Source: Candidatus Dadabacteria bacterium UBA1144
GTDB lineage: Bacteria; Desulfobacterota_D; UBA1144
DNA: 64,000 bases
Assembly (NCBI GenBank): GCA_002311855.1
Contig: DCAB01000012.1
Location: forward strand, 196,112 to 260,111
Direction of reading: 5' to 3'
The translations under genes and the position numbers were made by a program. Position 1 is the stretch's first letter, and each line of letters begins with the position of its first letter. Under the pieces are notes generated by a model, which ran no database searches, was not told the origin of the DNA, and was given only the letters and a program-made list of their open reading frames with translations. Shown piece after piece: positions 3,303-53,849 of the stretch.

Positions 3303-3722
3303 ATGACTAAAGACGAGATAAAAAAATTTATCAATCTTGCGTTTCTTGAAGCTCAGAAGGCATTGGACATTGGTGAAGTACCAATAGGATCGATAATAAT
3401 CAACAAAAATAAAAAGATTGTTGGTAGAGGTTACAACAAAACAGAAAAACTCTCAGACCCCACAGCTCATGCTGAAATAATTGCCATACGATCCGCGACA
3501 AAAAGAATAAAAGATTGGAGACTTGATAATCATATTATTTTTACAACAATCCAGCCATGTGAAATGTGTATGAGTGCAATTATTGAAGCAAGGATGCAAC
3601 AAGTTTTCTATGGTTCAAAAAACACCAAGAGAAGGAATAAGACCAAACAAATCAAATCTCGACTATCACGAAATCTCAAATGCGAAGATTTATTAAAAAA
3701 ATTTTTCAAAAGCTTAAGATAA
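3303..3722 (+). CDS. tadA: tRNA-specific adenosine deaminase
   Basis: 139 aa with the CDA zinc motifs HAEIIAIR and PCEMC. Confidence 0.85.
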   Translation: MTKDEIKKFINLAFLEAQKALDIGEVPIGSIIINKNKKIVGRGYNKTEKLSDPTAHAEIIAIRSATKRIKDWRLDNHIIFTTIQPCEMCMSAIIEARMQQVFYGSKNTKRRNKTKQIKSRLSRNLKCEDLLKKFFKSLR

Positions 3723-4400
3723 ATTTGTATCTAGTTTTTTTGGGAATATAGTTATTTTCTTTAAATGACCATATTCTTTGGTTGTATAAGTAACTTCATT
3801 ATTTTGCTCTATAATCAAATAAGAAATTCTTCTCTCATATGAGTTCATTGGATTTAGGCTTAATGGTCGATTAATGGAAACAACTTTCTCAACCATAGAT
3901 TGAACTTTTTCCTTAAGTTGATCATTCTTTCTTTCTCTGTAGGAGTTTATATCTATTCCAACCAACACACTTTGTGATTGTTGTTTACTCGCAATTCTGG
4001 AAAGTAAAAATTCTAAATTTTTGATCATATCTCCCTTCTTACCAATAAGAAATCCTAAATCAGCACTGCTTTTCATTTTTAATAATATGTTTCTATTTTG
4101 AACTTCTACTTCTATTTCGCTTTCTTCTACAAAATGATCAACAATGTGTCGAAAAATCTTTTCAATTTTCTCTGTATCCATAGGAACAGCATCCAATTCA
4201 TTTTTTTGAATGTCATTATTCCCGGATTCTACATCCCTGACCTTAATAATAGCGTTTCTGCTACCAATACCTAATACCCCCGAAGACCCTTCCCGTATTA
4301 CTTCAAAATTCAATTCATCTCTAGTAATACCAAGCTCTTTGCAAGCTTCTATAGTTGCGTCTGTTACAGTTTTTCCCTCAAATTCTCTTTCTATTGACAT
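3714..4400 (-). CDS. jag: Jag/KhpB RNA-binding protein (KH + R3H domains)
   Basis: 228 aa; conserved N-terminal Jag_N region and a C-terminal KH/R3H region, directly downstream of yidC as in the rpmH-rnpA-yidC-jag cluster. Confidence 0.75.
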   Translation of the reverse strand: MSIEREFEGKTVTDATIEACKELGITRDELNFEVIREGSSGVLGIGSRNAIIKVRDVESGNNDIQKNELDAVPMDTEKIEKIFRHIVDHFVEESEIEVEVQNRNILLKMKSSADLGFLIGKKGDMIKNLEFLLSRIASKQQSQSVLVGIDINSYRERKNDQLKEKVQSMVEKVVSINRPLSLNPMNSYERRISYLIIEQNNEVTYTTKEYGHLKKITIFPKKLDTNLS

Positions 4401-4403
4401 AAT

Positions 4404-6044
4404 TTATGCTCCTTGCATTTTATTGAATTTATTATTTATATATAATTGTTGAAAAATAGAAATTACATTACTTACAGTCCAATAAAGGATTAAGCCTGAG
4501 GGCAATCCCCAAAACATTACCGTAAATATAATTGGCATATATTGAAACATCTTAGTTTGAAACTCGTCAGCTCCGGGGTTGGGAGGAGTTAGTTTCTGAG
4601 TTAAAAACCATGAGGCACCCATTAAAAGAGGTAGAACTCTAAAAGGAATTCCAATACCAGGAATATCAAATAAGTTCTCAGGTGATGATAAATCTGACAT
4701 CCAAAGGAACGCTGTATGTCTCAGATCTATTGAATACAGTAATACATAGTAAAGTGCTACGAATACTGGTAGTTGAATCAACATGGGGAGGCATCCACTA
4801 AGGCTTGAAAGGGGGTTCATACCTTCTTTTGAGTAAACTTTCATCGTTTCACTATTTTGAGTTGTTTTGTCATCTTTGTATTTTTCTTTAATCGCATCTA
4901 TCTGGGGTTTAATAATCGCCATTTTGGCTTGCATCTTTTTCATTGACATCATACTTTTAACAGTAAGTGGCAAAAACAACAATCTTATTAAGATTGTGAT
5001 AAAAATTATTGATAACCCATAATTATTTATAAATTTGTTTGAAAATTTTAAAAGTTGTTCAAGAGGTACCGCTAGCCACTCGACCCATCCAAGATCTTGT
5101 GCCTTTTCAAAATTGTTTCCGAATTTTTTTAATATCCCTCTATCTTTTGGTCCGAGAAAAATTGTTGAAGAAATCGTGTACTGAGAGCCTGGTTTGAGAT
5201 TAATTCCTCTATAACTTAGAACCGATCTCATATAATTTTTCGAACTCTTACCGTATTTAAGTGTTTTGTCGCCTTCTAAATTAATAATATTGAAAGCTAA
5301 AAAATACTTCTTAGCAAAGCCGTACCAGTTTATACCCCCTATTATTTTTTCCGCTTCCGACGGGTTAGAATCTACGCTTTCCATTTCATCGTCCACATAA
5401 TAATTAAATAGTGAATATTCTTTTTGTTTTATTAAACCGATTGATTCTTCAAAAACTCTAAATTTTAAGTTTGTGTTTGAATTATTTGTAACAATAATTC
5501 TTTGTTCAATACCATGAGAGTCCGGTTTGAATAAATAATTCTTTTCCAATTTTATATCTCCAATTTTAGATATTAATGAAATACTCTTTTCCCGACTAGA
5601 TACAACTATATTGTTCGTATTGGGAACAAATTTTATATCTTTTGGGATTTCAACATCTTTTGCTTTAATTATCGTATTAGATAAGAACTCTCTTTTTTGG
5701 AGAAGTTTAACAAAAAAAGTAGATTCCGGATCCTCAAAATAGGTTTTTAAATTAACATCTAAAATCTTCCCACCTATTGTAGAAATTTTTCCCTCATACA
5801 AAGGGGTTGAAAACGAAACGTACCGTTCGTAGCTTAATCTTTCTTCGTCTAATATATTTTCTTCCGGAAGGGCGTATGATTCTTCTTCAACGGAAAACTC
5901 CTCGTCAACTTTTTCCTGAGTTATGGCTCTATCGTCCTTAGTTTTCGAACTTAACTTATCATCTTTTGGGGGGACAATAAAAAACTGGCTAACAACAATA
6001 ACGAGAAAGGCACCTATTAAAAAAGTAACGTAATTTCTATTCAT
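4404..6044 (-). CDS. yidC: membrane protein insertase YidC
   Basis: 546 aa with an N-terminal TM segment, a large periplasmic domain and a C-terminal 5-TM 60-kDa insertase core (LPMLIQLPVFVALYYVL). Confidence 0.9.
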   Translation of the reverse strand: MNRNYVTFLIGAFLVIVVSQFFIVPPKDDKLSSKTKDDRAITQEKVDEEFSVEEESYALPEENILDEERLSYERYVSFSTPLYEGKISTIGGKILDVNLKTYFEDPESTFFVKLLQKREFLSNTIIKAKDVEIPKDIKFVPNTNNIVVSSREKSISLISKIGDIKLEKNYLFKPDSHGIEQRIIVTNNSNTNLKFRVFEESIGLIKQKEYSLFNYYVDDEMESVDSNPSEAEKIIGGINWYGFAKKYFLAFNIINLEGDKTLKYGKSSKNYMRSVLSYRGINLKPGSQYTISSTIFLGPKDRGILKKFGNNFEKAQDLGWVEWLAVPLEQLLKFSNKFINNYGLSIIFITILIRLLFLPLTVKSMMSMKKMQAKMAIIKPQIDAIKEKYKDDKTTQNSETMKVYSKEGMNPLSSLSGCLPMLIQLPVFVALYYVLLYSIDLRHTAFLWMSDLSSPENLFDIPGIGIPFRVLPLLMGASWFLTQKLTPPNPGADEFQTKMFQYMPIIFTVMFWGLPSGLILYWTVSNVISIFQQLYINNKFNKMQGA

Positions 6045-6277
6045 TTCTTGTCCCCAATGGGAACTTTATCTATGCCAGCTTCAAATAATGGATTGCACTT
6101 AAAAATCCTAATTAAGGCAAGTCTCAATCCCTTAAATGGGCCATGAATACTAATTGCTTCTATAGCATATTGAGAGCAACTTGGGTGAAACCTACAAGCC
6201 GGTGGCAACACTCTCGAAAAGGATAATCTGTAAACTTTTATAAATGATATCAGAATTGACTGAACTATTGTTCCCAT
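6041..6277 (-). CDS. yidD: membrane protein insertion efficiency factor YidD
   Basis: 78 aa with CRFHPSCSQYAIEAI..HG..KG..L...RI.KCNP; 4-nt overlap with yidC. Confidence 0.85.
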   Translation of the reverse strand: MGTIVQSILISFIKVYRLSFSRVLPPACRFHPSCSQYAIEAISIHGPFKGLRLALIRIFKCNPLFEAGIDKVPIGDKK

Positions 6278-6612
6278 TTAGTAATATGCTTTCTTATTAA
6301 TGAAAGCTCTTTTCGTATCCTATTGAAGTCTAAGTCTAAAATGTTTTTATTTGCTAAAAAAATGACTTCTTTATTTTTTAAACTTTTAAAATCTAATCTA
6401 AAAACCTCTTTGATTCTTCGTCTATACTTGTTCCTTACCACAGCCAGGTTGCTAATTTTTTTAGATATTATAACACCTGGTTTCGAGCTTGAAATATTTT
6501 TATTTTCAACAACAATAACATCCATCCCCTTGACTTTAAATCTTTTCCCCATTTTTAGTTTTTTTTTGAAGCTAATCTTGTTACCTTTGGGAATATATTT
6601 AAGTAAGTTCAT
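6265..6612 (-). CDS. rnpA: ribonuclease P protein component
   Basis: 115 aa basic protein. Its start overlaps the rpmH stop (ATGA) and its end overlaps yidD. Confidence 0.8.
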
Positions 6613-15262: not shown

Positions 15263-15973
15263 TTATTTTTTATCTTTTGCACCAAATTTATCGGCTGTTT
15301 CCATTGAGATTCCTGCGTGTGCCCAGCAGGCCCCCGCACTCATAACCATTGCCACATTTATGGCTTCCGTAATCTCTTCTTTTGTTACTCCCTCTTTAAG
15401 TCCGTCTCTTATGCAACTCCTTATACACCAAGGGCATTTAGCCAAAAGAGCACAGGCTAATCCCATTAATCCCTTTTTTAGTTTTTTTGATAAGTGACCA
15501 TCAGCATAAACCATTTCATGGAAAGCCGAAAATTTCTCATGTGTTTCCCCGCTTAGCTTGTGAAATTCTTGTATTTGAGGAGTTATATTTTTACTAATAA
15601 AATATCCCTCCGTTACGTCTTTTTTGTCTTTCATCAAATCATAATTTTCAAAGGCAATGCTACCAAAAGCATAGGGTTGGCCCATTGCGAGTCTCATGGC
15701 AATAAAAATTCCTTCAGCAATCTGCTCATCTGTGGCACCTTCTGCCTTGGCTAGTTTCGTTCTTGATCTTATACAATACGGGCATCCCGTTATATGTGCA
15801 CACGCCATCGCAATTAGTTGTTTGTCCCTTAAGCTAATTAGCCCTTCTTTAAAGACCTCGTTTTGATATCCCATCCATGTATCATTCAATTCCGGTACAA
15901 GATTTTTAAGCTTAATCATGTATTCGGATATATTATCTTTATATATACTTTCACTCATAATAAACCCCCTCAA
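15263..15973 (-). CDS. carboxymuconolactone decarboxylase (AhpD-like) family protein, two tandem CMD domains
   Basis: 236 aa with two CxxC-type motifs (TGCPYCIRS and AKCPWCIRS) typical of AhpD/CMD. Confidence 0.7.
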   Translation of the reverse strand: MRGFIMSESIYKDNISEYMIKLKNLVPELNDTWMGYQNEVFKEGLISLRDKQLIAMACAHITGCPYCIRSRTKLAKAEGATDEQIAEGIFIAMRLAMGQPYAFGSIAFENYDLMKDKKDVTEGYFISKNITPQIQEFHKLSGETHEKFSAFHEMVYADGHLSKKLKKGLMGLACALLAKCPWCIRSCIRDGLKEGVTKEEITEAINVAMVMSAGACWAHAGISMETADKFGAKDKK

Positions 15974-32332: not shown

Positions 32333-33148
32333 TTAGCCGTTTTCGTCGGTTCTTGTTGGCAAACCCATTTGTTCGGCAGCAGCATTGATGGCAGCTAATC
32401 TCTCTGGTGTAAGAGCAGACTCTGGTTGTAAAACACCTAGTTTTGTCAGTTCCTCGTCTACAGCAGGATCAGCAATGGCTGGTGTACCAAACTTTTCTTG
32501 ATAGATAATGTCCCCATAGGCTCTTCTTGGTCGCATTCCCATAGATTCAACGGTTTCTCCGGGATAACCAATGGCCATTGCCCATACGAACTGAGCAGTC
32601 TCTGGAAATCCTAGCAACTCACCAATTTTTGGTGGAACCCCCGCATAAGCACAACAACCTAGCCCTAGAGCTGTAGCCATTAGCTGAGCTTGAGCCATAG
32701 CCATTCCAGTTTCACAACTAAGCATATAGCTGACGACTGGATCAGGAAAGGTTGTAAGTCTTGGTAGAGTTGAATTTTCAATGTTGTCCAAGCTCCAACC
32801 ATGACTCGGGTTGATAGCGCCAAGTTTAAAAATCTTTGGGAGCATCTCTGGAAGGCCTTCGAACCACCATTTTCTGTCCAAAGCAAAAACTAAGCTTACC
32901 GGTGCCATTTGAGCCATCGGAATATTAAAACTAGATACTATTTTAGTAAAAGCATCCTTTGTTTCCTGCTTTGACACGATGGTAATTGTTACAGCATTAG
33001 CGTTTCCCATATGTGAAGCGGTTCTGGCAGCTTGACAAATAGCTTGTATCTTTTCCGGTTCTACCGGCCTATTGGGATCATAAAATCTACATGAACGTCT
33101 ATCCCCAATAACGTTCATAAAATCTTTTCCTTGATAATCTAAACCCAT
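32333..33148 (-). CDS. nitroreductase-family flavoprotein
   Basis: 271 aa with an N-terminal RRSCRFY FMN-binding signature and C-terminal LGLGCCAYAG; longer than classic NfsA/B. Confidence 0.6.
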   Translation of the reverse strand: MGLDYQGKDFMNVIGDRRSCRFYDPNRPVEPEKIQAICQAARTASHMGNANAVTITIVSKQETKDAFTKIVSSFNIPMAQMAPVSLVFALDRKWWFEGLPEMLPKIFKLGAINPSHGWSLDNIENSTLPRLTTFPDPVVSYMLSCETGMAMAQAQLMATALGLGCCAYAGVPPKIGELLGFPETAQFVWAMAIGYPGETVESMGMRPRRAYGDIIYQEKFGTPAIADPAVDEELTKLGVLQPESALTPERLAAINAAAEQMGLPTRTDENG

Positions 33149-35810: not shown

Positions 35811-36943
35811 CGTTTCTCTAGCGCCAACTTAAATGCCCTTGCTTTTAAGATGGTTTCTGAATTTTCTTTTTTTGGAATCGAATCCCAAACAATTCCCGCC
35901 CCAGTAAAAAATTTTGAATTTTTTTTCTCAATTTTACAAATTCTTATCCCTACGGAAAAACAAAAATCACCATTGGGTTCAAATAGGCCTATCGCACCAC
36001 AGTATGGTCCCCTATGATGGTTTTCTATCTCCTTTATAATTTCAATAGCTCTTGATTTCGGAGCTCCAGTTACGGACCCGGGAGGCATAATGTTGGTAAA
36101 AATTTTTTCATTGTTTGTATCTTTTTTTAAAATCCCTTCTATTTCTGATTCTAGTTGGTAAAGTGTTGAATATCTCTTTTTTCTAAACAATTTCTTTGAT
36201 ACAACAGAGCCCGTTCGGCAAATTCGTGATAAATCATTTCGCATCAAATCTACTATCATTAAATTTTCTGCCAACTCTTTTTTATCATAATTAATTTTGT
36301 CCCGAGTTCCAAGTATGGTAGGAGAGGTTCCTTTAATCGGTTTTGTGGTTATTTTGTTTGCTGATTTTTCTATAAAAAGTTCCATTGAGCCACTTATTAT
36401 TGTATGGTCAGGGAACTCTAAAAACGAAGCATAGTCTACCGGTTGTTGAGAATAGTATTTCATAAATAATTTGTAGGGGTTTTTTGGTGAATCAAAGCTA
36501 AATTCTCTAGTTAAATTTATTTGGTAGATGTCTCCTTCTTTGATATATCGTTTGGCTCTAACAATTCCATTTAGGAATTTTTTATCGGGCTGGGTTCTGT
36601 TGAGCTTGTTCGGTTTGTTTGAAACAGAAGGAGTGACAAGTCTTTTCCCGAGAGTGTCTTGATCGTAAATGTTAAAAATGGCCTTATAATGAGGGGGTTT
36701 GACTTTTTTTTCCAAAAACTCAAATGAAAAATATCCGCACACATAATGACCTTTTTTTAAAATTGTCTCTATCGATTTTATGAAAGATTTTTTCTTGATT
36801 ACCTGTTTTTTTCCTTTATAAATAAGCCTAATCCCGCTCGAATTCTCATAAATACACCCTACAGGGTTAGAAAATTTTATATTAGACCATTTGGTTTTTT
36901 TAAGTTGCCAGCTTGCGTTTCTAGACCTAAGATGTGTCGTCAT
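35807..36943 (-). CDS. pabB: aminodeoxychorismate synthase component I (short chorismate-binding enzyme)
   Basis: 378 aa with only the chorismate-binding C-terminal domain (PPGSVTGAPK, GPYCGAIG, TGAGIVWDS); followed by pabC. Confidence 0.7.
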   Translation of the reverse strand: MTTHLRSRNASWQLKKTKWSNIKFSNPVGCIYENSSGIRLIYKGKKQVIKKKSFIKSIETILKKGHYVCGYFSFEFLEKKVKPPHYKAIFNIYDQDTLGKRLVTPSVSNKPNKLNRTQPDKKFLNGIVRAKRYIKEGDIYQINLTREFSFDSPKNPYKLFMKYYSQQPVDYASFLEFPDHTIISGSMELFIEKSANKITTKPIKGTSPTILGTRDKINYDKKELAENLMIVDLMRNDLSRICRTGSVVSKKLFRKKRYSTLYQLESEIEGILKKDTNNEKIFTNIMPPGSVTGAPKSRAIEIIKEIENHHRGPYCGAIGLFEPNGDFCFSVGIRICKIEKKNSKFFTGAGIVWDSIPKKENSETILKARAFKLALEKR

Positions 36944-38981
36944 TTTTTTCTAATTCTGATGAATCGACCGTTAGTTTTTCAAAATTGGAGTTGTTAACCG
37001 GTAAATCAAGAGAATCTCTTAATATTTCGGCAACATCTTTAATTTTGATTGTTTCGTTGTCATGATGTTTTGCGGCATCCTCGAACATGGTGCTACAAAA
37101 AGGACAGGCAACAGCAGCGGTTTTGACTCCGAGGTTTTGAATCTCATCAAACCTGTTCCAGCTAACTCTCGGTGCCTCTTCCTCCATCCAGACCTTTCCT
37201 CCCCCAGCTCCACAGCAAAAGCTGTTTTCCCTACTCCTGTCTAGCTCCTTAATTTCTAATCCGGGTATTGAGGTTAGTATTTCTCTGGGCTCATCAAAAA
37301 TCCTATTGTGCCTCCCTAAATAGCAAGGGTCATGATAAGTTATTTCTTCGTCAATATTTTTTGTGGGAGAGAGTTTTCCTTCTTTGATTAAATTATTTAG
37401 AAACTCGGAATGGCTTACGACCTCAACATCAGAGCCAAAATCAGGGTATTCGTTTTTTAATGTATTAAAACAGTGTGGGCAGTTTGCCACAACCTTTTTT
37501 ACGTTAAACCTTTTCATGGTTTCTATGTTTGTCATCGCTAATTCTTGATAAAGAGCCTCATCGCCCAATCTTCTCGCGGGGTCTCCAGAGCAAGTTTCGC
37601 TGGGTCCCATAATAGCAAATTTTACGCCCGCCTCTTTAAGTAGTTGGGCAATCGTTGATGCAACTTCCTGTCCACGAGGGTCATATGCGCCAAAACAACC
37701 AGTCCAAAAAATTACGTCATAGCTTTCCGCGCTGTCACCTCCTCCGTTTCCAAGAACGGGTGTTCCTTCGGCTTTGGCCCAAGGCGCCCTATCAGATGCC
37801 TCAAACCCCCATGGGTTGCCATAACTTTGAAGTTTTTGAAGTGTCCTAACTGATGGTCCGGTAAGTTTGCCTTCCATGGTAAGGTAGCGCCTCATCTCAA
37901 GTATTTTCCCCATCTGATCAATCAACAGAGGGCACTGTTCAACACATGCGCCACATGTTGTACAAGCATAAAGCTCCTCGGGTGTCACCCATTTTTGGTC
38001 AGGCAAATACTCGGTTTTCATTTGTTCTTTGTTCGCATTTTCGGTAGCAAAATGTCTTAATTTGATTACAATATCTCGGGGAGAAAGGGGCTTGTCGGTT
38101 GCCCAGGCAGGGCAAACGTCGGTGCATCTCCCACACTCAGTACACGTGTATGCATCCAGGACGTCTTTCCAGCTAAAGTCCTCAAATTTCCCGCTTCCAA
38201 AATGTTCTATGTCTTCAGGAATGTTTTCAAAATCTAATTTGGTCATTTTTCCTGTGGGTTCAAGATTTTGAAAAAATACATTAGGAACAGCTGTAAGAAC
38301 ATGGCTGTGTTTTGAATAAGGCAGATAGTTTAAAAAAGCTAAAAGTATACATACGTGGAACCACCAAAAAAACTCTGCTGTAAATGCAATCGTTGTAAGG
38401 TTCGCGTTGGCCAGAAAGAAAGAGGCCCATATAGATGAGATTGGAAGCCAGGACTCCCTCTCTGTTCCCATTGCAATCTCCGATGCTCTAAATCCAAAAT
38501 CAGAAACCATTAAGGCAAAAATTAGGCCCAAAATTACCGCCGCATCGATACTGTTTACCTCTCTTCTTTTGCCGCTCGGGATAACGGTTCTGTTAAGGAC
38601 TCCCATAACAAGTGCAATGAGCACCAAGGCTTCAACTATGTCTAGTATGAGCAAAAAAACTCCCTGTGCGTTTCCTCCTAAAAAGGAGAACATCTCGAAG
38701 TTGGGAACAAACCCCAAAATCAATACCTCCACGGATCCAAATGTAATAATCATAAATCCCCAAAAAAGCATAAAATGCTCAATACCAGCCCAGGCATAGT
38801 TCTTTAAGATTCTTTTTTGACCAAAAACATAAATAAAGATTCCCTTTGTTCTGTCCATCATGCGATCCATTCTGAACGAGGGCCTTTTTGCAGAGAACAT
38901 TATGCGTAAAAAACCATAAACATTTCTTAGTAAAAGCAAAACTGCAAAAAGGATTAAAAGGGATAAAATTGCTGCCTTCAT
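36927..38981 (-). CDS. membrane-anchored Fe-S oxidoreductase: NarI-like multi-TM N-terminal domain fused to an HdrD/GlpC-like domain (2 x 4Fe-4S ferredoxin motifs + 2 CCG domains); EtfD/DsrMK-fusion-like
   Basis: 684 aa with about 230 aa of TM helices, then CTECGRCTDVCP and CTTCGACVEQCP, then cysteine-rich CCG repeats (CFGAYDPRG, CPHCFNTL, DPCYLGRHN, CCGAGGG, CPFCSTM). Confidence 0.75.
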   Translation of the reverse strand: MKAAILSLLILFAVLLLLRNVYGFLRIMFSAKRPSFRMDRMMDRTKGIFIYVFGQKRILKNYAWAGIEHFMLFWGFMIITFGSVEVLILGFVPNFEMFSFLGGNAQGVFLLILDIVEALVLIALVMGVLNRTVIPSGKRREVNSIDAAVILGLIFALMVSDFGFRASEIAMGTERESWLPISSIWASFFLANANLTTIAFTAEFFWWFHVCILLAFLNYLPYSKHSHVLTAVPNVFFQNLEPTGKMTKLDFENIPEDIEHFGSGKFEDFSWKDVLDAYTCTECGRCTDVCPAWATDKPLSPRDIVIKLRHFATENANKEQMKTEYLPDQKWVTPEELYACTTCGACVEQCPLLIDQMGKILEMRRYLTMEGKLTGPSVRTLQKLQSYGNPWGFEASDRAPWAKAEGTPVLGNGGGDSAESYDVIFWTGCFGAYDPRGQEVASTIAQLLKEAGVKFAIMGPSETCSGDPARRLGDEALYQELAMTNIETMKRFNVKKVVANCPHCFNTLKNEYPDFGSDVEVVSHSEFLNNLIKEGKLSPTKNIDEEITYHDPCYLGRHNRIFDEPREILTSIPGLEIKELDRSRENSFCCGAGGGKVWMEEEAPRVSWNRFDEIQNLGVKTAAVACPFCSTMFEDAAKHHDNETIKIKDVAEILRDSLDLPVNNSNFEKLTVDSSELEKNDDTS

Positions 38982-42067: not shown

Positions 42068-43198
42068 TTACACTCTCATTGGCATAACAACAGATAGTTG
42101 TTTGTGTGTGTTGTCTTTGTTTGAATATATGCACGCTGGGCTAACTTCGTCAGTAACACAAAAAAAGACCTCTTCTTCTTCAAAAGAGCTTAGCGCCTCT
42201 ATTAGGTATTTAACATTAAAGCCTGCCTCTGTGTTGTTTTGGGCCTCGCTAATTTGGATTGTTTCTGTCGTTTCTCCTTCGTCTGAGGTGCTTCTGATTT
42301 CGATTTCGTTTTTATTTATAAGCATTCGTGCGCCCCTGGCCTTGTCTGACAAAACGACGGAGACCCTCTGTAGGGACTCGAGTAGTTTTTTTCTCTCAAC
42401 TTTAAATGTGTTTGATAAATCGCGTGGTAACACTTGGTTGTACTCTGGAAAATCTACGTCAATTAGCCTGGAAAGAATTGATGTTTGCCCATTGTCGCAA
42501 ACAAAAAAACTTTTTCCAATTCCTATTTGAACGATCTCTGTGTCTTTTATAAACTTTTTCAGCTCGTTTGCCGCTTTTTTTGATAAAACAAAGGACTCCT
42601 GTGTGTTGTTTTCGAGTTCTTCCTCTGCAATACTCATCCTGTGGCCATCTGTTGCGACGAGCCTTATCTTCCCCGGGGTCGTCATGTCAAAAAAAACACC
42701 TGTCAGGTTTTTTCTTAAGTTGTCTCCCCCTACTGCGTAGGCAGTCTTTTGAATTAGCGAGCTTAAGGTGGCGCTTTTGGTTGCCACATAGGTAAAATCC
42801 TCTGGTTTTGGTATTTGTGGAAAATCTTCCGCTGGGAGAGTTTTTATTTTTGTTGTTCCTGTCGTGTGAACAACCTCTAGTTGGTTTGTCTTGTTGGTTG
42901 ATATTTTAACGTCTTCATCTGTTATTTTTTCTGTTATTTCAAGTATTTTTTTTGCTGGTAGGCAAACCGCGCCGTCCTCTTCCGCGTTAATCGGCAGCGA
43001 GGTATAGCTCGTTGATTCTAGGTCCGTAGAGGATAAAAAAAGTCTTCCATCTTTTACTAAAAATAGGACATGTGAGAGTATTAGCATCGTTGATCTTGTA
43101 TCTATAACACCTTGTACATAAAACAAATGTTTAAGTAGCAGTGATTTATTAACAGAGAACCTCATCTCTTCTCCTATTGTAATATTAATATAATACAA
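42068..43198 (-). CDS. dnaN: DNA polymerase III beta sliding clamp
   Basis: 376 aa with three clamp domains, directly downstream of dnaA. Confidence 0.9.
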   Translation of the reverse strand: MYYINITIGEEMRFSVNKSLLLKHLFYVQGVIDTRSTMLILSHVLFLVKDGRLFLSSTDLESTSYTSLPINAEEDGAVCLPAKKILEITEKITDEDVKISTNKTNQLEVVHTTGTTKIKTLPAEDFPQIPKPEDFTYVATKSATLSSLIQKTAYAVGGDNLRKNLTGVFFDMTTPGKIRLVATDGHRMSIAEEELENNTQESFVLSKKAANELKKFIKDTEIVQIGIGKSFFVCDNGQTSILSRLIDVDFPEYNQVLPRDLSNTFKVERKKLLESLQRVSVVLSDKARGARMLINKNEIEIRSTSDEGETTETIQISEAQNNTEAGFNVKYLIEALSSFEEEEVFFCVTDEVSPACIYSNKDNTHKQLSVVMPMRV

Positions 43199-43323
43199 AC
43201 AGTAGTAGTAGTATGTATGTTAATATGTTAAGTAACAAAAAAAAGGGGAAAAACAAACGAGAAACAGCCCACATCTTTTAACGGTAATCAACAAAAAAAA
43301 CAACCACCAAAAAAAAGTCAACA

Positions 43324-44760
43324 TTAATCATCTAGTTTTCCACCGGATATCTTCCTAAGTTTGCTATGAAGAACGCGGATTGGGTTTTCCAGAGAGGGGT
43401 TGTTTGCTAAAACACCTTCAACAGTAGCAACAGAATGAAGAACAGTTGAATGGTCCCTCCCCCCAAACTTTCTGCCAATCTCCAGAAGGGAATCGTCTGT
43501 AAAAATACGAGAAAGATAAATAGCAACCTGCCGAGGCCTTACGACACCCCGTGTTCTTTTTTTCGAGCACATATCTTGAACCGTCGTTCCATAAAAAGAG
43601 GCAACCTCTTTTTGTATAAGTTCTACATTGATTAAGTCAACACTAGAGACAGACGACAACCTAGACGCGACATCAAGAACAAGCCTTTTATTTAGAGGAA
43701 CATTTAGCATGGTAGCCTGGCCGACAACGTTATTAAAAAACCCCTCCAGCTCCCTAATGGATCCACCGGACTTTTCTGCTACAACGAACAACACGTCCTC
43801 GTCGATTCTTAGACCCAAAGAGCGAGCTTTGATTTGAAGTATAGCAACCCTGTGTTCTACGTCGGGGGGCAGGACCTCAACAGAAAAACCCCACTCAAAC
43901 CGCCCTACGAGCCTTTCTTGAATACCCGAAAGACGGTGGGGAGGCTTGTCGCTCGTTATAACAATTTGCTTCCCTGATTCATAAAGAGCATTGAAAGTAT
44001 GAAAAAACTCTTGTTGAGTCCCATCTTTCCCTGAAATAAACTGGATGTCGTCAATTAAAAGGACATCACAATCGAAGCGAAAGGCATCTCGGAGCTCCTT
44101 TTGTTTTCCCCCCCTTATAGAAGAGATAACCCTGTTGGTAAAATGCTCCGCCGTAAGTGAACAAATTTTAAAGTCCTCATTATAAAAATCATAAATCGTG
44201 TTGCCAACCGCATTTAAAAGATGTGTTTTTCCAAGACCCGTCCTTCCATAAATAAAAAGGGGGTTGTAGGATTGACCAGGTTTCTCCGCAACCCTTTCAG
44301 CTGCAATTGCTGCTAACGTGTTTGATGCACCCTTAACAAAACTGGAGAAAGTCTGTGTCCCGTTTAGATGACCTTCTTTGACCCTGGTTAGTCCTCTTTG
44401 TTTTTTTGTGGACGCTTTCTTGATTTTAATTGTAGGCACAGGAGAAATAGCTTCAGATTCAACAATTACTTTCCTCGAACCAAGGTCCTCTTTGGATTCC
44501 TCCTTAAATACTTTGTCGAGAATATGTAGGTAGTGATTGTTTATCCACTCCGCAGTCATCATATCAGAAACAACAAATTTTGCCTCGGTTTCGTTTAAAC
44601 CAACAAGTTTTAAAGTGTAAAAGAAATGCTTTATGCCGGGGTAGTTTTCCGAGATGTTGTCTACGACCATGGCCCCGAGAATATTTTTATCTATTAAATC
44701 AACGTCACCATGTTCTTGTTGCGTCAGACGGGTAGACGAGAAGTCGGCAGCCTTGACCAT
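43324..44760 (-). CDS. dnaA: chromosomal replication initiator DnaA
   Basis: 478 aa with AAA+ Walker A GRTGLGKTHLL, box VII and a C-terminal DNA-binding HTH (RVIAMYL-type region VAIYLSRIFTD). Confidence 0.95.
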   Translation of the reverse strand: MVKAADFSSTRLTQQEHGDVDLIDKNILGAMVVDNISENYPGIKHFFYTLKLVGLNETEAKFVVSDMMTAEWINNHYLHILDKVFKEESKEDLGSRKVIVESEAISPVPTIKIKKASTKKQRGLTRVKEGHLNGTQTFSSFVKGASNTLAAIAAERVAEKPGQSYNPLFIYGRTGLGKTHLLNAVGNTIYDFYNEDFKICSLTAEHFTNRVISSIRGGKQKELRDAFRFDCDVLLIDDIQFISGKDGTQQEFFHTFNALYESGKQIVITSDKPPHRLSGIQERLVGRFEWGFSVEVLPPDVEHRVAILQIKARSLGLRIDEDVLFVVAEKSGGSIRELEGFFNNVVGQATMLNVPLNKRLVLDVASRLSSVSSVDLINVELIQKEVASFYGTTVQDMCSKKRTRGVVRPRQVAIYLSRIFTDDSLLEIGRKFGGRDHSTVLHSVATVEGVLANNPSLENPIRVLHSKLRKISGGKLDD

Positions 44761-46841: not shown

Positions 46842-47743
46842 GTTCCACTAATTACTCTATCAATTTTATTTAAATCCCGATAGGATTTAATGTTTTCATA
46901 TCCAGTCGCTTCAAGCAACTGTTTTACGTCGCCTGCTTGGCGGTACCCGACTTCAAGAAAAATCATCCCCCCCTTTTTTAAAGCCTTAGCCCCCCCTAGG
47001 GCAATTTTTCTTATATGAGTTAAGCCATTAGATTTTGAGAAAAGAGCACCTTTCGGCTCATATTTTTTAATTGAAAGGTCCAGCTTTCTATATTCTTCTT
47101 CTGTTACATAGGGAGGGTTTGAAACAATGTAATCAAATTCAATTTTAGGAACATTTTGAAACAAGTTGGAAGAAATTATTTTAGTTTTAGTTTTTAGCCC
47201 CATATTTTTTTGATTCTTCCTGCAGCAATCAAGAGCCTTCTTGCTATTATCGACCAAGAAAATTCTTTTTATATTGGGCGCCTCACCTACAATTGTGAGG
47301 CCAACACAACCACCTCCCGTGCACATGTCTAAACAAACTACCCCGGCAGAAAGATTTTTTTTAATTTCCGCAACCGCAATTTCTACTAATAGTTCGGTAT
47401 CTGGGCGGGGAATAAAAACCCCCCTGGTTATGAAGTAGCTCTTTGAGTAAAAATAACTTGTCTGGCGAACATAGGACATGGGCTCACCATTAAGCCTTCT
47501 TTGTACAAGGAGAAGAAATTTGTCTTTTATGTTTTTTGACACATGGTATTCTGGATGGGCAACCATGCGCTCCAGAGGCATGTCGGAGCAATGCTCTAGC
47601 AACATACTGGCTTCTAGTAGATGGCTTTTGATGCCACCTTTTTTTAGTATGTCTTGGCCTAATTTCAAAACCTGGTTGGTAGCAACACCCATTGTGTGAT
47701 TATATACTATACTGTTTTTTAAAGTTATGAATTTAAATCTCAA
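46829..47743 (-). CDS. prmC: release factor glutamine N5-methyltransferase (PrmC/HemK); true start possibly internal Met at ~47692
   Basis: SAM methyltransferase fold with NPPY (VSNPPYV) and DMCTGGGCVG. Confidence 0.8.
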   Translation of the reverse strand: MRFKFITLKNSIVYNHTMGVATNQVLKLGQDILKKGGIKSHLLEASMLLEHCSDMPLERMVAHPEYHVSKNIKDKFLLLVQRRLNGEPMSYVRQTSYFYSKSYFITRGVFIPRPDTELLVEIAVAEIKKNLSAGVVCLDMCTGGGCVGLTIVGEAPNIKRIFLVDNSKKALDCCRKNQKNMGLKTKTKIISSNLFQNVPKIEFDYIVSNPPYVTEEEYRKLDLSIKKYEPKGALFSKSNGLTHIRKIALGGAKALKKGGMIFLEVGYRQAGDVKQLLEATGYENIKSYRDLNKIDRVISGTWKN

Positions 47744-48422
47744 AAGGAATTTTCAAACCTTCAATAAGGAATTCGAAGAGTATTGTGAGTCAAAAAAAAC
47801 CACAGCGAAATTGATTGCTGTGTCCAAAACAAAACCCTTATCGCAAATCATCGAACTTTATCATCTTGGACAGAGAAGTTTCGCAGAAAACTACGCGCAA
47901 GAATTACGAGATAAAAATATTGACAACTTGAGCGATATAAACGCGGAGTTAGCTTGGCACTTTATCGGACAAATCCAAAAGAATAAAATTAAACATATTG
48001 TTGGCACGGCAACCCTTATTCACACGGTTGATAGCTATGAAAAAGCTGCTTTAATTAATTCCCTTTGTGAACAAAGAAAAATAAAGCAAAATATTTTGTT
48101 ACAAATTAATATTTCTAACGACAAGAAAAAGGCGGGAATTAAAGCGGAAGAAACAAAAACACTAATTAGAAAAATTGCAAATTTAACCGAGATACAGATT
48201 AGGGGGCTTATGACAATAACAGAGTTTTTTGAGGACCCAGAGGAATCTAGGGATTTTTATAAAAATCTAAAATCACTCTCGTTGGAGGTAGAAAGCGAAC
48301 TCCTTTCCAGGCCAGAGCTATCAATGGGAATGAGCAATGATTATAAGGTTGCCATAGATGAGGGGGCAACGATTGTTAGGGTAGGAAGTAAGATTTTTGG
48401 AGAAAGGAAAAAAATATTATAA
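47727..48422 (+). CDS. yggS: YggS-family pyridoxal phosphate homeostasis protein
   Basis: 231 aa alanine-racemase-N-like barrel with a PLP Lys in LIAVSKTKP. Confidence 0.85.
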   Translation: MNLNLKRNFQTFNKEFEEYCESKKTTAKLIAVSKTKPLSQIIELYHLGQRSFAENYAQELRDKNIDNLSDINAELAWHFIGQIQKNKIKHIVGTATLIHTVDSYEKAALINSLCEQRKIKQNILLQINISNDKKKAGIKAEETKTLIRKIANLTEIQIRGLMTITEFFEDPEESRDFYKNLKSLSLEVESELLSRPELSMGMSNDYKVAIDEGATIVRVGSKIFGERKKIL

Positions 48423-48429
48423 TTCAACA

Positions 48430-49260
48430 ATGAGGATAGGAATAATAGGAGCGGGGAACATAGCGACGGCTATCCTGTCGGGCATCTCCTCGACTGACAA
48501 GAATGTTAATATTTGTTGCTCTGATGTAGACCAAAAACAGCTATCAAAAATAAAAAAATCAAAACAGATTTCAACAACACGGAACAATCTTGTTGCGGTC
48601 ACCAAAAGTGATTTGGTGTTTTTGTGTGTTAAGCCAAATGTCATTGAAAAAGTCATGCGAGAAATAAAACCAATCTTTCAGCCCAAACAAATTTTAATAT
48701 CTGTTGCTGCGGGGATTTCCCTGAAAACCCTAGAGAGTTTTTTGGGCAAGGAAAGAAAAATCATCAGGACAATGCCTAACCTTCCATGCCTAGTTGCACG
48801 AGGCGTAATTGGGATGAAAGCAAACAAAAACTGCACCGCCAAAGACAAAAAGATTGCAGAAAAACTAATCTCATCAGTAGGAAAGATTGTTCAGGTAAGA
48901 AGCGACAAAGCCTTTGATTACATAACTGCCATAAGTGGTTCTGGGCCGGCATTTCTTGCTGAGTACATACGAGCTAACATGTCTTTCGCAAAATCAAAAC
49001 GACTAGGCGAAAAAACAAGCAAGGATTTAGTCTTTGAAACCATATCCGGAACGATTGAATTTTTGAAGTATAATGATATAAAGATAGAAAAATTTATATC
49101 GATGGTTGCTTCCCCTGGTGGCACGACGGAAGAGGGATTAAAAAGTTTAAGGAGGAACAATTACACGAAGATAGTTAAAGAGTCCCTTAGGGTGGCAGCA
49201 AAAAGGTCATCAGCAATTAGCAAGAAAGTTGCATCGAAAAGGAAAAAAATAAATGGATAA
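48430..49260 (+). CDS. proC: pyrroline-5-carboxylate reductase (ORF opens at 48397; MRIGIIGAGNIA taken as start)
   Basis: Rossmann N-terminus and a P5CR dimerisation C-terminus (PGGTTEEGL). Confidence 0.85.
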   Translation: MRIGIIGAGNIATAILSGISSTDKNVNICCSDVDQKQLSKIKKSKQISTTRNNLVAVTKSDLVFLCVKPNVIEKVMREIKPIFQPKQILISVAAGISLKTLESFLGKERKIIRTMPNLPCLVARGVIGMKANKNCTAKDKKIAEKLISSVGKIVQVRSDKAFDYITAISGSGPAFLAEYIRANMSFAKSKRLGEKTSKDLVFETISGTIEFLKYNDIKIEKFISMVASPGGTTEEGLKSLRRNNYTKIVKESLRVAAKRSSAISKKVASKRKKING

Positions 49261-49540
49261 TTTTTTATTTGCAATTGCAGGAATTTTGAATTCAATATTC
49301 GATATTTTGTTTTGGTTGATTTTGTTTCGCAGTATTATTTCGTGGGTCAATCCTGATCCATACAACCAAATAGTCCAATTCTTAATAAGAATTACTGAGC
49401 CTGTGCTTGCGCCCATAAGAAATGCAATGCCATACATAGGGGGGGTTGATGTGTCCCCAATTGTCGCAGTTCTTGCTATACATTATTTAGGGAAGGTGTT
49501 TTTGGTCGAATCAATTCGCGATTTGGCTCTAAACTTCTAA
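49253..49540 (+). CDS. yggT: YggT-family membrane protein
   Basis: 95 aa with 2 TM segments, in the conserved yggS-proC-yggT-yggU order; 8-nt overlap with proC. Confidence 0.7.
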   Translation: MDNFLFAIAGILNSIFDILFWLILFRSIISWVNPDPYNQIVQFLIRITEPVLAPIRNAMPYIGGVDVSPIVAVLAIHYLGKVFLVESIRDLALNF

Positions 49541-49542
49541 AA

Positions 49543-49800
49543 TTGAACATATCAGTTCGAGTTAAGCCAAGAGCACGTAAATCCGAAGTGATTTCTTATG
49601 AAGACGACATACTTACTGTTAGAGTTGCGGCCATCCCGCACAAACAACAATCCAACAAAGAGCTCATCAGGGTGCTGTCTGATTTTTTTGATATACCAAA
49701 ATCGAGTATAAGCATAGCAGGTCGTAAATCAAAAATTAAGATTTTACATATTGATCGCAAGACAGAAGATATTACCGGACGCTTGAAAAAACTGTTATAA
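49543..49800 (+). CDS. yggU: DUF167 (YggU) family protein
   Basis: 85 aa with VRVKPRARKSEV...ELIRVLSDFFDIPKSSISI typical of DUF167. Confidence 0.7.
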   Translation: MNISVRVKPRARKSEVISYEDDILTVRVAAIPHKQQSNKELIRVLSDFFDIPKSSISIAGRKSKIKILHIDRKTEDITGRLKKLL

Positions 49801-49846: not shown

Positions 49847-50503
49847 ATGAAAATAAGTTTATTAGGTGGAACAGGGGCATTTGCCGAAGGCTTAGTTATT
49901 AGATGGTCACAGGCAGGGCATGATATTTTTATTGGTTCGAGAAGCGAGGAAAAAGCACAAGGCATAACAAACGACATGCTTGAAAAGGCTAAGTCAGTTG
50001 GCATCGATGCAAACATTACTGGTCTCGTTAACGCAGAAGCGGCGAAAGAAACCGAGATAGTTGTTGTTTGTTTGCCCCACGAACACACATCCTCAACACT
50101 TGAAGGAATTAAAGATTCGTTTACAAATCAAATTGTAATTTCACCAGTTGTACCGATGAAAAAAGAGGGCGATTTTTTCTTGTTTGATCAGCCACCTTTA
50201 GGCTCGGCAGTTGCGGAAATTAAAGCGGTCCTTCCTGATACGGTAAAAATTGTAAGCGCTTATCACAACATCCCAGCTAAGGGATTGGCCAATCTCGACA
50301 AACCCTTAGATTACGATGTGGCAATCTGTGGAGATGACGAAGAGTCGAAAAAGGTAGTAAAACAATTAACCGAACAAATGCCAAACTTAAGACCAATCGA
50401 TGCTGGACCACTCCAACTCTCAGGTATGATCGAGTCGATAACACCCTTGATTATAAACATGAACATCAAACACAAACATGAGTTCTCCATCAAATTTGTT
50501 TGA
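49847..50503 (+). CDS. NADPH-dependent F420 reductase (Fno/Npd-like) family oxidoreductase
   Basis: 218 aa; MKISLLGGTGAFAEGLVIRWSQAGHDIFIGSRSEEKAQ closely parallels the Fno N-terminus (MKIAVLGGTGDQG...IGSRDAEKA). Has a Rossmann fold plus an F420-binding-like C-terminal half. Confidence 0.65.
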   Translation: MKISLLGGTGAFAEGLVIRWSQAGHDIFIGSRSEEKAQGITNDMLEKAKSVGIDANITGLVNAEAAKETEIVVVCLPHEHTSSTLEGIKDSFTNQIVISPVVPMKKEGDFFLFDQPPLGSAVAEIKAVLPDTVKIVSAYHNIPAKGLANLDKPLDYDVAICGDDEESKKVVKQLTEQMPNLRPIDAGPLQLSGMIESITPLIINMNIKHKHEFSIKFV

Positions 50504-50667
50504 TGGCTTGTCGGATGGATCGGATATGATAAATAAAAAAACCACCTTGGAGAGGAAGCTAGACAACATAAATCACACAATAGAACCAATTCGAACAATT
50601 GTTCCAATTGCAATACTAATTATTCAGAGCATAATTTTGATTAAATTATTTAATCAAGGAGAATCAA

Positions 50668-50973
50668 ATGGCAAAATCAATTAGGCCCCTAGGGGATAAG
50701 GTTTTAGTAAAGAGAATGGATGTGGCGGAGAAAACGGAGGGGGGCATTATAATTCCTGAAAGTTCCACAGAAAAGCCCTTAGAAGGAACCGTTGTTGCCG
50801 TGGGCAAAGGAAGAGTGGACGAAAAAGGCAAAACTATTCCTTTGACTCTTAAAAAAGGGGACAAAATTCTTTTTAATAAATATGGAGAATCTGAAATTTC
50901 TTTTGAAAACGAAGAACTTCTAATACTCGAAGAAGCCGATGTTTTAGCGGTTCTTATAAATACTGCTAAGTAA
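50668..50973 (+). CDS. groES: co-chaperonin GroES (no groEL follows)
   Basis: 101 aa with IRPLGDKVLVKR...EGGIIIPESSTEKP mobile-loop and roof motifs, preceded by an AGGAG RBS. The 3' end overlaps the convergent cofC-like gene by about 30 nt. Confidence 0.9.
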   Translation: MAKSIRPLGDKVLVKRMDVAEKTEGGIIIPESSTEKPLEGTVVAVGKGRVDEKGKTIPLTLKKGDKILFNKYGESEISFENEELLILEEADVLAVLINTAK

Positions 50974-51588
50974 ATACTTGGTAGTCAGATTTCTTACTTT
51001 GGAAGATCTAAGTTTTGTTAGGTCATCTACGCAATCTATATCAAGAGCGATATTGCTATTTTTAATTACCGAGTACCGGGTCTTAGTTTCTTTGAAAGCC
51101 TCAATGTGTTTTTTTAGGCTATTAGAGCCGAAAAATGAGGGAATCACATTCGGGGGGCTTCGCAATATAGCATTTGTTCCTGTGCCGCTTATCGAAGGAA
51201 CGATGACACACGAATTGTTTGTTAGAGCAAAATTAAAAATTTCATCGATATCCTTAGATTGAACGAGAGGAATATCGCTAGGAATTCGTAATACTCTTTC
51301 TCCACCTAATGAGGCAAGGTGTTTGGATGCCCAGTCAACGGAAACATTCTCATTTACTTGGCTTGTTTCCACAAGAACCTCAATCCCAATCTTGTTTGCC
51401 ATTCTTATTGCCTCTTCGTCTTTTGTCACGATAAAATTTTTATCTGAAACTTTCGATTTTTTTACTTGCCATAAAACATCTTCGAGCATGCACCGTACGA
51501 GACTAAAGGTAGCTGTACCAGATAAATCTTCTCTTATGCGAGACTTTGCCTCTTTAAAGTTTTTAAAGGGAACGATAGTAAAATTCAT
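50944..51588 (-). CDS. cofC: 2-phospho-L-lactate guanylyltransferase-like (CofC/FbiD family) nucleotidyltransferase
   Basis: 214 aa; MNFTIVPFKNFKEAKSRI, IPSDIPLVQSKDIDEI, SGTGTNAIL and ALDIDCVDDL match the CofC pattern (IIPxK..., PADIP, GGGTN, DIDTPEDL). Confidence 0.6.
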   Translation of the reverse strand: MNFTIVPFKNFKEAKSRIREDLSGTATFSLVRCMLEDVLWQVKKSKVSDKNFIVTKDEEAIRMANKIGIEVLVETSQVNENVSVDWASKHLASLGGERVLRIPSDIPLVQSKDIDEIFNFALTNNSCVIVPSISGTGTNAILRSPPNVIPSFFGSNSLKKHIEAFKETKTRYSVIKNSNIALDIDCVDDLTKLRSSKVRNLTTKYLLSSIYKNR

Positions 51589-52487: not shown

Positions 52488-53849
52488 TTATTGAGAATCA
52501 AAATTATCCAAATGGTCATCTGCAAGATTCTCAAAGCTAGGCACGCCTTGGCTGTCAAGAAATGCTAAAGAAACCGTCCCAGTGGGGCCATTTCTTTGTT
52601 TGCCAATTATAACTTCAGCAAGACCATCTCTTTCCTCAACGTTCCTCTTGTAAGCATCTGCCCTATGAAGAAACAAAACCATATCTGCATCCTGCTCTAA
52701 TGCCCCGCTTTCTCGTAAATCGGAGAGTTGTGGCTTTTTGTCTGTTCTTGATTCAGTTTGTCTGCTTAATTGAGAAATTGCTATGATTGGAATTTTAAGT
52801 TCTTTGGCTAAGGCCTTAAGGGAGGAAGATATGTCTGCAATTTCTCTTTCTCTGCTTTCCGACCCCTTAGCTCCTCTCATAAGCTGTAGGTAATCAACAA
52901 CTAAAAGGTCAATTCCTTTGTCGCTTTTAAGCCTTCTTGTTCTTGCTCTTAGCTCAAGTGCATTAATAGCTGGGGTGTCATCTATATAAATACTTGCTCC
53001 TTGCAATGTGGCCGCAGCATCAACTACTTTCTTAAATTCTGAGTCGGACAGAAAACCAGTTCTAATTTTTGAGAAATTTATTTTTGATTGTGCGGAAAGC
53101 ATTCTCATCATTAGCATCTCTTTTGTCATCTCTAGTGAAAAAAAAGCAATGTTTAAACCATGTATTAATCCAGCATGCATAAGAACGTTCAAACCAAAAG
53201 CGGTCTTTCCCATACCAGGTCTGGCGGCCAATATAATCAAATCTGCACTTTGGAAACCGGCAGTTTTTTGGTCCAATTTTTTAAAACCGCTTGCTATGCC
53301 AGTTATTGCCTCTTTTCTTTTAGTTAGCCCCTCAATGATTTTGATAGCCTCTGTAGCCAGCTCCCTTGTGGAAAAAAATCCTACCCTGTGCTTGTCTTGA
53401 GTTATATTAAATAATTTTTTCTCTGCCTGGTCTATAAAATCATCAACAACAATTTGATCCATTTGTCCTTCTCTTATGATTTCCAACGCGGTTTTAATCA
53501 TGCTGCGTAAAATTGATTTTTCTTTTACAGATTTTGCATAAAAAGCTACGTTTGAGGCACTAGGAACAATTTCAACGAGTTGAGTCAAATAAGAGCTACC
53601 ACCAACATCTTGCAGCAAGGACTTCTTTGATTTTAATTTTTCATATAAGGTCAAAACATCTATGGGTGTGTTTTCAAAATCCAAATCGACCATCGCTGAA
53701 AATATCTTTCTATGGTTGTCGTTATAAAAATCATTTACTGTAAGTTCTTCAAGCGCTAAATTTATAGCATGTTCGTCCAACAGTATGGATCCCAATACTG
53801 CTTGTTCTGCTTCTTTGTTTTGAGGCAATGATTTAATGTCGTTAGCCAT
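52488..53849 (-). CDS. dnaB: replicative DNA helicase DnaB
   Basis: 453 aa with an N-terminal DnaB domain, Walker A GARPGMGKTAF and Walker B/arginine finger motifs. Confidence 0.9.
   Translation of the reverse strand: MANDIKSLPQNKEAEQAVLGSILLDEHAINLALEELTVNDFYNDNHRKIFSAMVDLDFENTPIDVLTLYEKLKSKKSLLQDVGGSSYLTQLVEIVPSASNVAFYAKSVKEKSILRSMIKTALEIIREGQMDQIVVDDFIDQAEKKLFNITQDKHRVGFFSTRELATEAIKIIEGLTKRKEAITGIASGFKKLDQKTAGFQSADLIILAARPGMGKTAFGLNVLMHAGLIHGLNIAFFSLEMTKEMLMMRMLSAQSKINFSKIRTGFLSDSEFKKVVDAAATLQGASIYIDDTPAINALELRARTRRLKSDKGIDLLVVDYLQLMRGAKGSESREREIADISSSLKALAKELKIPIIAISQLSRQTESRTDKKPQLSDLRESGALEQDADMVLFLHRADAYKRNVEERDGLAEVIIGKQRNGPTGTVSLAFLDSQGVPSFENLADDHLDNFDSQ

Follow-up and report, generated by a model that had tools for sequence, protein, structure and literature searches.

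The 64,000 nt stretch analysed here, referred to as the window, is from Candidatus Dadabacteria bacterium UBA1144 (GenBank assembly GCA_002311855.1, contig DCAB01000012.1, positions 196,112 to 260,111). Three open reading frames (ORFs), at 49847-50503 (+), 50668-50973 (+) and 50944-51588 (-), form the locus under study. This locus very probably consists of two orthodox genes for cofactor F420, fno and cofC, belonging to a pelagic marine member of Candidatus Dadabacteria, with a second, intact groES gene, here designated groES2, between them. By family membership, the 218 aa product of the first ORF is a genuine NADPH-dependent F420 reductase (Fno), predicted to catalyse NADPH-F420 hydride transfer, and the 214 aa product of the third is a genuine CofC with predicted guanylyltransferase activity. 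Production or use of F420 by the cell is likely; cofD, cofE and an FO synthase gene were not located in the searches made.

The Fno and CofC proteins

The Fno reaction is a hydride transfer that links NADPH with the deazaflavin F420, and bacteria usually run it toward F420H2. The original prediction, which was made from the DNA alone, assigned the 218 aa product to this family, and the assignment holds. The equivalog model TIGR01915 (NADPH-dependent F420 reductase, EC 1.5.1.40) scored 229.6 bits (E 4e-68), 80 bits above its cut-off of 149.8, and PF03807 scored 61.7 bits. The protein is not better described as a generic reductase, with other Rossmann reductase models reaching at most 23 bits against cut-offs above 250. 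Residues 1-217 align end to end with residues 1-211 of the crystallised Fno from Archaeoglobus fulgidus (1JAX/1JAY; 173 bits, E 4.5e-50, approximately 50% identity), and the match spans the C-terminal deazaflavin-binding half, beyond the Rossmann fold. The Thermobifida fusca FNO (5N2I) was matched at 106 bits. The GGTGxxxxG, GSRSEEK and H-N-I-P motifs are all kept, and the HNIPA segment aligns to HTIPA of A. fulgidus (H133-T-I135-P), in which we take H133 and I135 to be functional residues.

The 214 aa product had been assigned to CofC/FbiD on the basis of the motifs IVPFK, PSDIP, GTGTN and DIDCVDDL. All four are present, and the equivalog model TIGR03552 (CofC) scored 124.5 bits (E 4e-36; cut-off 105), with PF01983 at 85 bits. 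MobA or another nucleotidyltransferase, which had been named as the possible better match, is not one: NTP_transf_3 (MobA-like) scored 24.2 bits (cut-off 27), MocA 31.5 bits (cut-off 186) and TIGR04282 31 bits (cut-off 134). Members of the same 90% clusters are named '2-phospho-L-lactate guanylyltransferase' and 'NADPH-dependent F420 reductase' by JGI, and an identical CofC is found on many marine metagenome contigs, the longest of which are 580-680 kb.

The best PDB match of the 214 aa protein was 7P97 (E 2e-17), the 3-phosphoglycerate-activating CofC from Mycetohabitans, followed by the Methanosarcina mazei CofC (2I5E) and Mycobacterium tuberculosis FbiD (6BWG/6BWH). Residues were mapped onto the alignment from Hasan et al. 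2022 (PMC8764529). In M. tuberculosis FbiD, the Mg2+-binding Asp triad and the substrate-binding Lys, Thr and Ser are K17, D116, T148, S166, D188 and D190 (PMC8764529), and these align to K9, D105, T138, S157, D183 and D185 here. All six, together with K15 and N139, are invariant in seven orthologs (five marine, two Acidobacterial). Activation of 3-phosphoglycerate by the Mycetohabitans CofC involves S162, supported by His145, Met91 and Cys95 (PMC8764529). The corresponding residues here are G154, T136, E80 and V84, and assignment to the 3-phosphoglycerate type was rejected despite the best PDB match. Because the diagnostic S162 and H145 are replaced by G154 and T136, and Gly and Thr occupy these specificity positions in the enzymes that use 2-phospho-L-lactate or phosphoenolpyruvate (PEP), we predict that the substrate is 2-phospho-L-lactate or PEP, giving classical F420, and not 3-phosphoglycerate.

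CofC homologs from other lineages come next, at 38-44% identity, and are Acidobacterial where source names are given. The nearest, at 41% identity, are encoded at L015 (Blastocatellia, GCA_035248905.1), in a cluster with the order fno-cofD-cofC-cofE, and at L016, where the order is LLM-fno-cofD-x-cofC-cofE (LLM, luciferase-like gene). That the nearest outside relatives sit in F420 clusters supports the orthology of the cofC in the window.

The second groES and the conserved gene order

The groES2 product matches Cpn10 (PF00166) over the full-length domain (115.8 bits, E 1e-33, cut-off 21.1) and NF001531 at 113.5 bits (cut-off 96). Its mobile loop, AEKTEGGIIIPESS, contains GGIIIP, with the hydrophobic tripeptide. 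It scored 98 bits against the GroES of Thermus thermophilus and 78 bits against that of Escherichia coli.

This gene had been called an orphan groES with no groEL downstream, part of an unusual split chaperonin arrangement. It is correct that no groEL follows groES2; cofC and then xth come next. However, a canonical operon of groES (96 aa) and groEL (552 aa) is present at 3124-5095 of L018, which is the left-edge extension of the window on an independently assembled 388 kb ENA contig and is 100% identical to the window over 400 nt at the junction. In this operon, groES lies 2.9-3.2 kb and groEL 1.27-2.9 kb upstream of window position 1, approximately 54 kb from groES2. The groEL product scored 820.7 bits with TIGR02348 (cut-off 582). 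Because this operon sits upstream on the same contig, the groES in the window is a second groES paralog and not an orphan, and the chaperonin is not split. The upstream operon is unlikely to be an assembly chimera, as the contig was assembled independently in several samples. The two GroES proteins are 48% identical and score alike (approximately 98-99 bits against T. thermophilus and 78-79 bits against E. coli). No CIRCE operator was found near groES2 or the operon groES.

The features of the locus and of the genes leading into it are as follows.

47727-48422 (+): yggS (TIGR00044, 196 bits)
48397-49260 (+): proC (TIGR00112, 213.5 bits)
49253-49540 (+): yggT (PF02325, 76 bits)
49543-49800 (+): yggU/DUF167 (PF02594, 64.7 bits)
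49847-50503 (+): fno (npdG), NADPH-dependent F420 reductase, 218 aa (TIGR01915, 229.6 bits)
50504-50667: fno-groES2 spacer, 164 nt, with a candidate 68 aa ORF at 50478-50684 (+) called by some gene callers
50668-50973 (+): groES2, second co-chaperonin GroES paralog, 101 aa (PF00166, 115.8 bits)
50944-51588 (-): cofC (fbiD-type), predicted 2-phospho-L-lactate/PEP guanylyltransferase, 214 aa (TIGR03552, 124.5 bits)
50944-50973: convergent 3'-end overlap of groES2 and cofC, 30 nt (from the ORF coordinates)

Six genes on the same strand (yggS, proC, yggT, yggU, fno, groES2) form a co-directional run in which fno is fifth, with overlaps or gaps of no more than 46 nt from yggS up to fno. The order of the first four genes is the same in all related loci. 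AGGAG-type ribosome-binding sites precede fno (before its ATG) and groES2, and the next gene past cofC is xth, at 51720. The overlap of the groES2 3' end with cofC, noted in the original prediction, is confirmed. A weak hairpin in the overlap (50962-50985) is not above shuffled expectation, and promoter-like matches in the fno-groES2 spacer are at chance level (10, compared to 7.1 +/- 2.5 expected from shuffled sequence). The 68 aa ORF in the spacer contains a hydrophobic stretch. Because the spacers of relatives measure only 20-62 nt, it cannot be conserved, and it is unlikely to be a real gene.

Related loci L001, L002, L017 and L013/L014, at which CofC is 72%, 71%, 54% and 47% identical, respectively, to that of the window, all preserve the order xth, cofC (convergent), groES2, fno, yggU. 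The fno-groES2 spacer is 62 nt in both L002 and L017 and 20 nt in L013, compared to 164 nt in the window. The 3' overlap of groES2 and cofC is also kept, but its size varies (30 nt in the window, 27 nt in L002, 11 nt in L013 and 8 nt in L017). The whole nadB-dnaN neighbourhood is equally syntenic across the lineage. Near-identical contigs varied too little for an estimate of selection, and the pair L001 and L002 was therefore used. At unsaturated dS (0.38-0.58), dN/dS was 0.108 for cofC, 0.029 for groES2 and 0.027 for fno. With dN/dS at 0.03-0.11, all three genes are maintained by purifying selection.

We note that L001 (CAJXCX010000041.1) is titled 'uncultured Spirochaetales bacterium', though its nadC-nadA-dnaB-xth-cofC-groES2-fno synteny is that of the Dadabacteria contigs, and the Spirochaetales label is probably wrong. 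L002 is labelled Thermodesulfobacteriota; NCBI now ranks Candidatus Dadabacteria as a class of Thermodesulfobacteriota.

The remainder of the F420 pathway and alternative explanations

In the preferred reading, CofC would join GTP to a three-carbon phospho-acid (predicted to be 2-phospho-L-lactate or PEP), CofD would link the guanylylated intermediate to FO, giving F420-0 or dehydro-F420-0, and Fno would work the hydride transfer between NADPH and F420. The groES2 product would be a normal-looking heptameric lid for GroEL. The fno and groES2 genes would be transcribed together with, and at the end of, the yggS-proC-yggT-yggU run, and the adjacency of groES2 to the F420 genes may reflect mere tight gene packing. 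A 2021 FEMS review records F420 biosynthesis genes as encoded in multiple Dadabacteria genomes (PMC8498797).

A number of results weigh against this reading. As the original prediction had already stated for cofD, cofE and cofGH, the rest of the pathway is not in the window: a Pfam scan of ORFs of at least 110 aa found no member of the CofD, CofE, CofG/H, luciferase-like or FDOR families there. Using tblastn with seven kinds of F420-pathway query (including CofD, CofE, FbiC, LLM and nitroreductase), there was no match at E<=0.01 in the window, its flanks or the loci of relatives, and no F420 gene lies in the adjoining 6.3 kb and 8.9 kb outside the window. No Dadabacteria CofD was among the 120 listed of at least 8000 matches to an Acidobacterial CofD; the 120 are all at least 70% identical to the query and Acidobacterial where named. 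Nor was one identified among the best 150 of the 50% representatives in a HMMER search, which extend down to 239 bits; a CofD as diverged as the CofC of the window would score approximately 220 bits, below that floor. Candidates in the best 150 were ranked by AT-rich amino acid composition and traced to their contigs. Those at L020, L023/L024 and L025 were rejected as Dadabacteria loci, each having its own cofC beside cofD; the CofC of L020 and L023 are only 23-27% identical to that of the window.

Two further points count on the same side. The position of L92 in M. tuberculosis FbiD and M91 in the Mycetohabitans CofC is Glu in the CofC of the window and of its Acidobacterial relatives. In addition, the Fno of the window shares only approximately 33% identity with its counterparts in Acidobacterial or other marine F420 clusters. 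Because it is closer to archaeal Fno (173 bits) than to those of the Acidobacterial clusters, separate histories are more probable for fno and cofC than joint inheritance, and their proximity could be coincidental.

Other candidates were also set aside. L027 (cofE-cofD-radical SAM) correlates with the window in tetranucleotide frequencies at only approximately 0.5. Tetranucleotide correlation was itself dropped as a test of lineage, as it placed L013, a true relative, closer to the unrelated L020 than to the window. Of the further AT-rich CofD candidates, those with a source name are from archaea, SAR202 or Pseudomonadota. Within the window, a 271 aa nitroreductase-family protein (PF00881, PF14512) is encoded at 32333-33148 (-) and has no specific NCBIfam match. 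It was considered as a dehydro-F420 reductase and rejected, with only 24% identity (E 8e-7) to a CofD-fused nitroreductase and no tblastn match to the cofC-linked nitroreductase of L025.

AT-rich marine contigs (Tara, ENA) were found to hold compact F420 clusters, namely fno-cofE-cofD-cofC-LLM-fbiC in L020 (8582-14969), cofD-cofC-nitroreductase in L025 (10001-12183) and, in L023 (9599-12554), a CofH_C fragment followed by cofD-cofC-LLM. F420 genes seem to be common in low-GC marine bacterioplankton. Fusions of CofD with CofE, CofC, Fno, nitroreductase or radical-SAM domains occur in several lineages.

The alternative that survives best, though we consider it unlikely, is a partial or salvage pathway, in which Fno, CofC and possibly CofD and CofE have been kept without an FO synthase and FO is imported from cyanobacteria and algae. 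In its extreme form, Fno would act on scavenged FO and CofC would have been recruited to another guanylylation. Marine Dadabacteria genomes are approximately 1.2 Mb, >96% coding and poor in paralogs (PMC8115339), and this small size with few paralogs would suit salvage, as would the lack of any other F420 gene in approximately 79 kb of contiguous sequence and the occurrence of FO-using photolyases in cyanobacteria and algae (PMC8498797). The lack of a Dadabacteria CofD in the 150 best-scoring representatives and in the 120 word-index matches listed would also fit. However, this miss is uninformative, as the Acidobacterial matches crowd the list and the expected score falls below the 239-bit floor. 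Moreover, CofC is productive only when coupled to CofD (PMC8764529), the purifying selection on cofC argues for an existing partner, and Dadabacteria are counted among the lineages that encode F420 biosynthesis (PMC8498797).

A functional tie between groES2 and the F420 genes, with a dedicated co-chaperonin co-expressed with Fno and tuning GroEL for certain clients, is slightly less credible again. The place of groES2 between fno and cofC is kept down to 47% CofC identity, the fno-groES2 spacers of the relatives are short, and groES2 is under strong purifying selection in genomes with few or no duplicates. However, with the nadB-dnaN neighbourhood equally syntenic, these genes are not alone in keeping their position. 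In addition, groES2 looks like an ordinary groES, and the Acidobacterial and other marine F420 clusters do not include one. An equally doubtful idea combines the two, supposing that the approximately 1.2 Mb pelagic Dadabacteria have dismantled an F420 cluster, retaining Fno and CofC beside a dedicated second GroES, without an FO synthase and with FO obtained from phytoplankton. Such cells would live by scavenging this cofactor, and groES2 would be expressed together with Fno.

Mis-annotation, in which the 214 aa protein is a MobA/MocA-like or sugar-nucleotide transferase and the 218 aa protein a generic NADP-dependent Rossmann reductase of the ProC/STEAP type, could appeal to weak secondary matches (CTP_transf_3 29.6, NTP_transf_3 24.2 and MocA 31.5 bits) and to PF03807 also matching ProC and prephenate dehydrogenase in the window, but it is very improbable and, judged from the model scores and alignments, already largely refuted, with both proteins above the CofC and Fno equivalog cut-offs, the graded alternatives 100-400 bits under theirs (NTP_transf_3: 24.2 against 27), the Fno match covering the C-terminal F420-binding half, the CofC substrate and Mg ligands conserved and the nearest relatives located in F420 clusters.

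Under the preferred reading of two orthodox F420 genes and a second groES, the enzyme assignments are routine, as JGI already annotates both proteins in this way, and F420 in Dadabacteria is not new for the group (PMC8498797). The published account of marine Dadabacteria makes no mention of F420 (PMC8115339), and no F420 entries were found in a part of its supplement. The dispersed F420 arrangement with a conserved second groES has not been described so far. Should the remaining pathway genes also be present, the predicted F420 users would gain an abundant, streamlined ocean heterotroph, a modest extension of the reviews. The only unusual elements are the conserved extra groES in a paralog-poor genome and the dispersed F420 genes, and neither bears on a long-standing open question.

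Other features of the window and comparison with known systems

The window has a GC content of 36.5% and densely packed genes, which is consistent with pelagic marine Dadabacteria as described in PMC8115339. The Pfam scan showed that it is filled by housekeeping and catabolic genes, including trpEG, yidC, rnpA, metG, pheT, mnmE, dnaA, dnaN, dnaB (52488-53849), murA, hisG and nadABC, as well as genes for a 2-oxoacid:ferredoxin oxidoreductase and a glycerate 2-kinase. The GC content steps from approximately 0.30-0.36 (1-24000) to approximately 0.37-0.41 (24001-64000) near 24 kb. The stretch across this step is contiguous in the independent 388 kb assembly, and housekeeping genes are found on both sides.

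The genes dnaA, dnaN, rnpA-yidC-jag and mnmE are adjacent in many bacteria. Here, dnaA/dnaN (42068-44760, -) are approximately 37 kb from the rnpA-yidC-jag group (3714-6612, -) and approximately 19 kb from mnmE. The cumulative GC skew over the window has no clear turn and the replication origin was not located.

A block at 23.4-34.9 kb includes genes for an acyl-CoA dehydrogenase, a thiolase-like protein, MaoC, an aldehyde dehydrogenase and two acetoacetate-decarboxylase-like proteins. At 15263-15973 (-), a tandem AhpD-domain protein is encoded that matches TIGR04169 ('arsenosugar biosynthesis-associated peroxidase-like protein') at 128 bits (cut-off 120); no gene for a radical-SAM ArsS partner was noted beside it. 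At 36927-38981 (-), between pabB-like and tyrA genes, is a gene for a 684 aa protein with a 4Fe-4S dicluster and two CCG domains, like HdrD or TfrB. The best match of this protein was to the fumarate reductase (CoM/CoB) subunit TfrB, at 190.7 bits and below the cut-off of 385.

Extra chaperonin genes are known elsewhere, with multiple groESL operons in rhizobia and extra groEL genes in actinobacteria and cyanobacteria. As in those groups, the genome keeps one canonical groES-groEL operon and has more than one gene of the chaperonin system. However, only groES is duplicated here, without a second groEL nearby.

Compared to the Fno of A. fulgidus (1JAX/1JAY), the protein encoded in the window is of similar length (218 aa and 212 aa) and shares the GGTG dinucleotide-binding loop, the GSR(S/R)EEK segment and the H-x-I-P segment. 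Although its host is bacterial, it scores higher against this archaeal enzyme (173 bits) than against FNO of the actinobacterium T. fusca (106 bits), and its gene does not adjoin cofD or cofE. The CofC belongs to the same fold family as the characterised CofC/FbiD proteins (7P97, 6BWG/6BWH and 2I5E), and has the Lys, the Asp triad, the Thr-Asn and the Ser ligands in common with them. A difference from these systems is that the cofC of the window stands apart from cofD and cofE, convergent with a groES gene. With the Acidobacteria clusters (L015 and L016), it shares the CofC signature ES(A/V)SVDWAS, but the Dadabacteria neighbourhood differs from these clusters in lacking cofD and cofE, in the inverted orientation of cofC relative to fno and in the presence of groES2 between the two genes.

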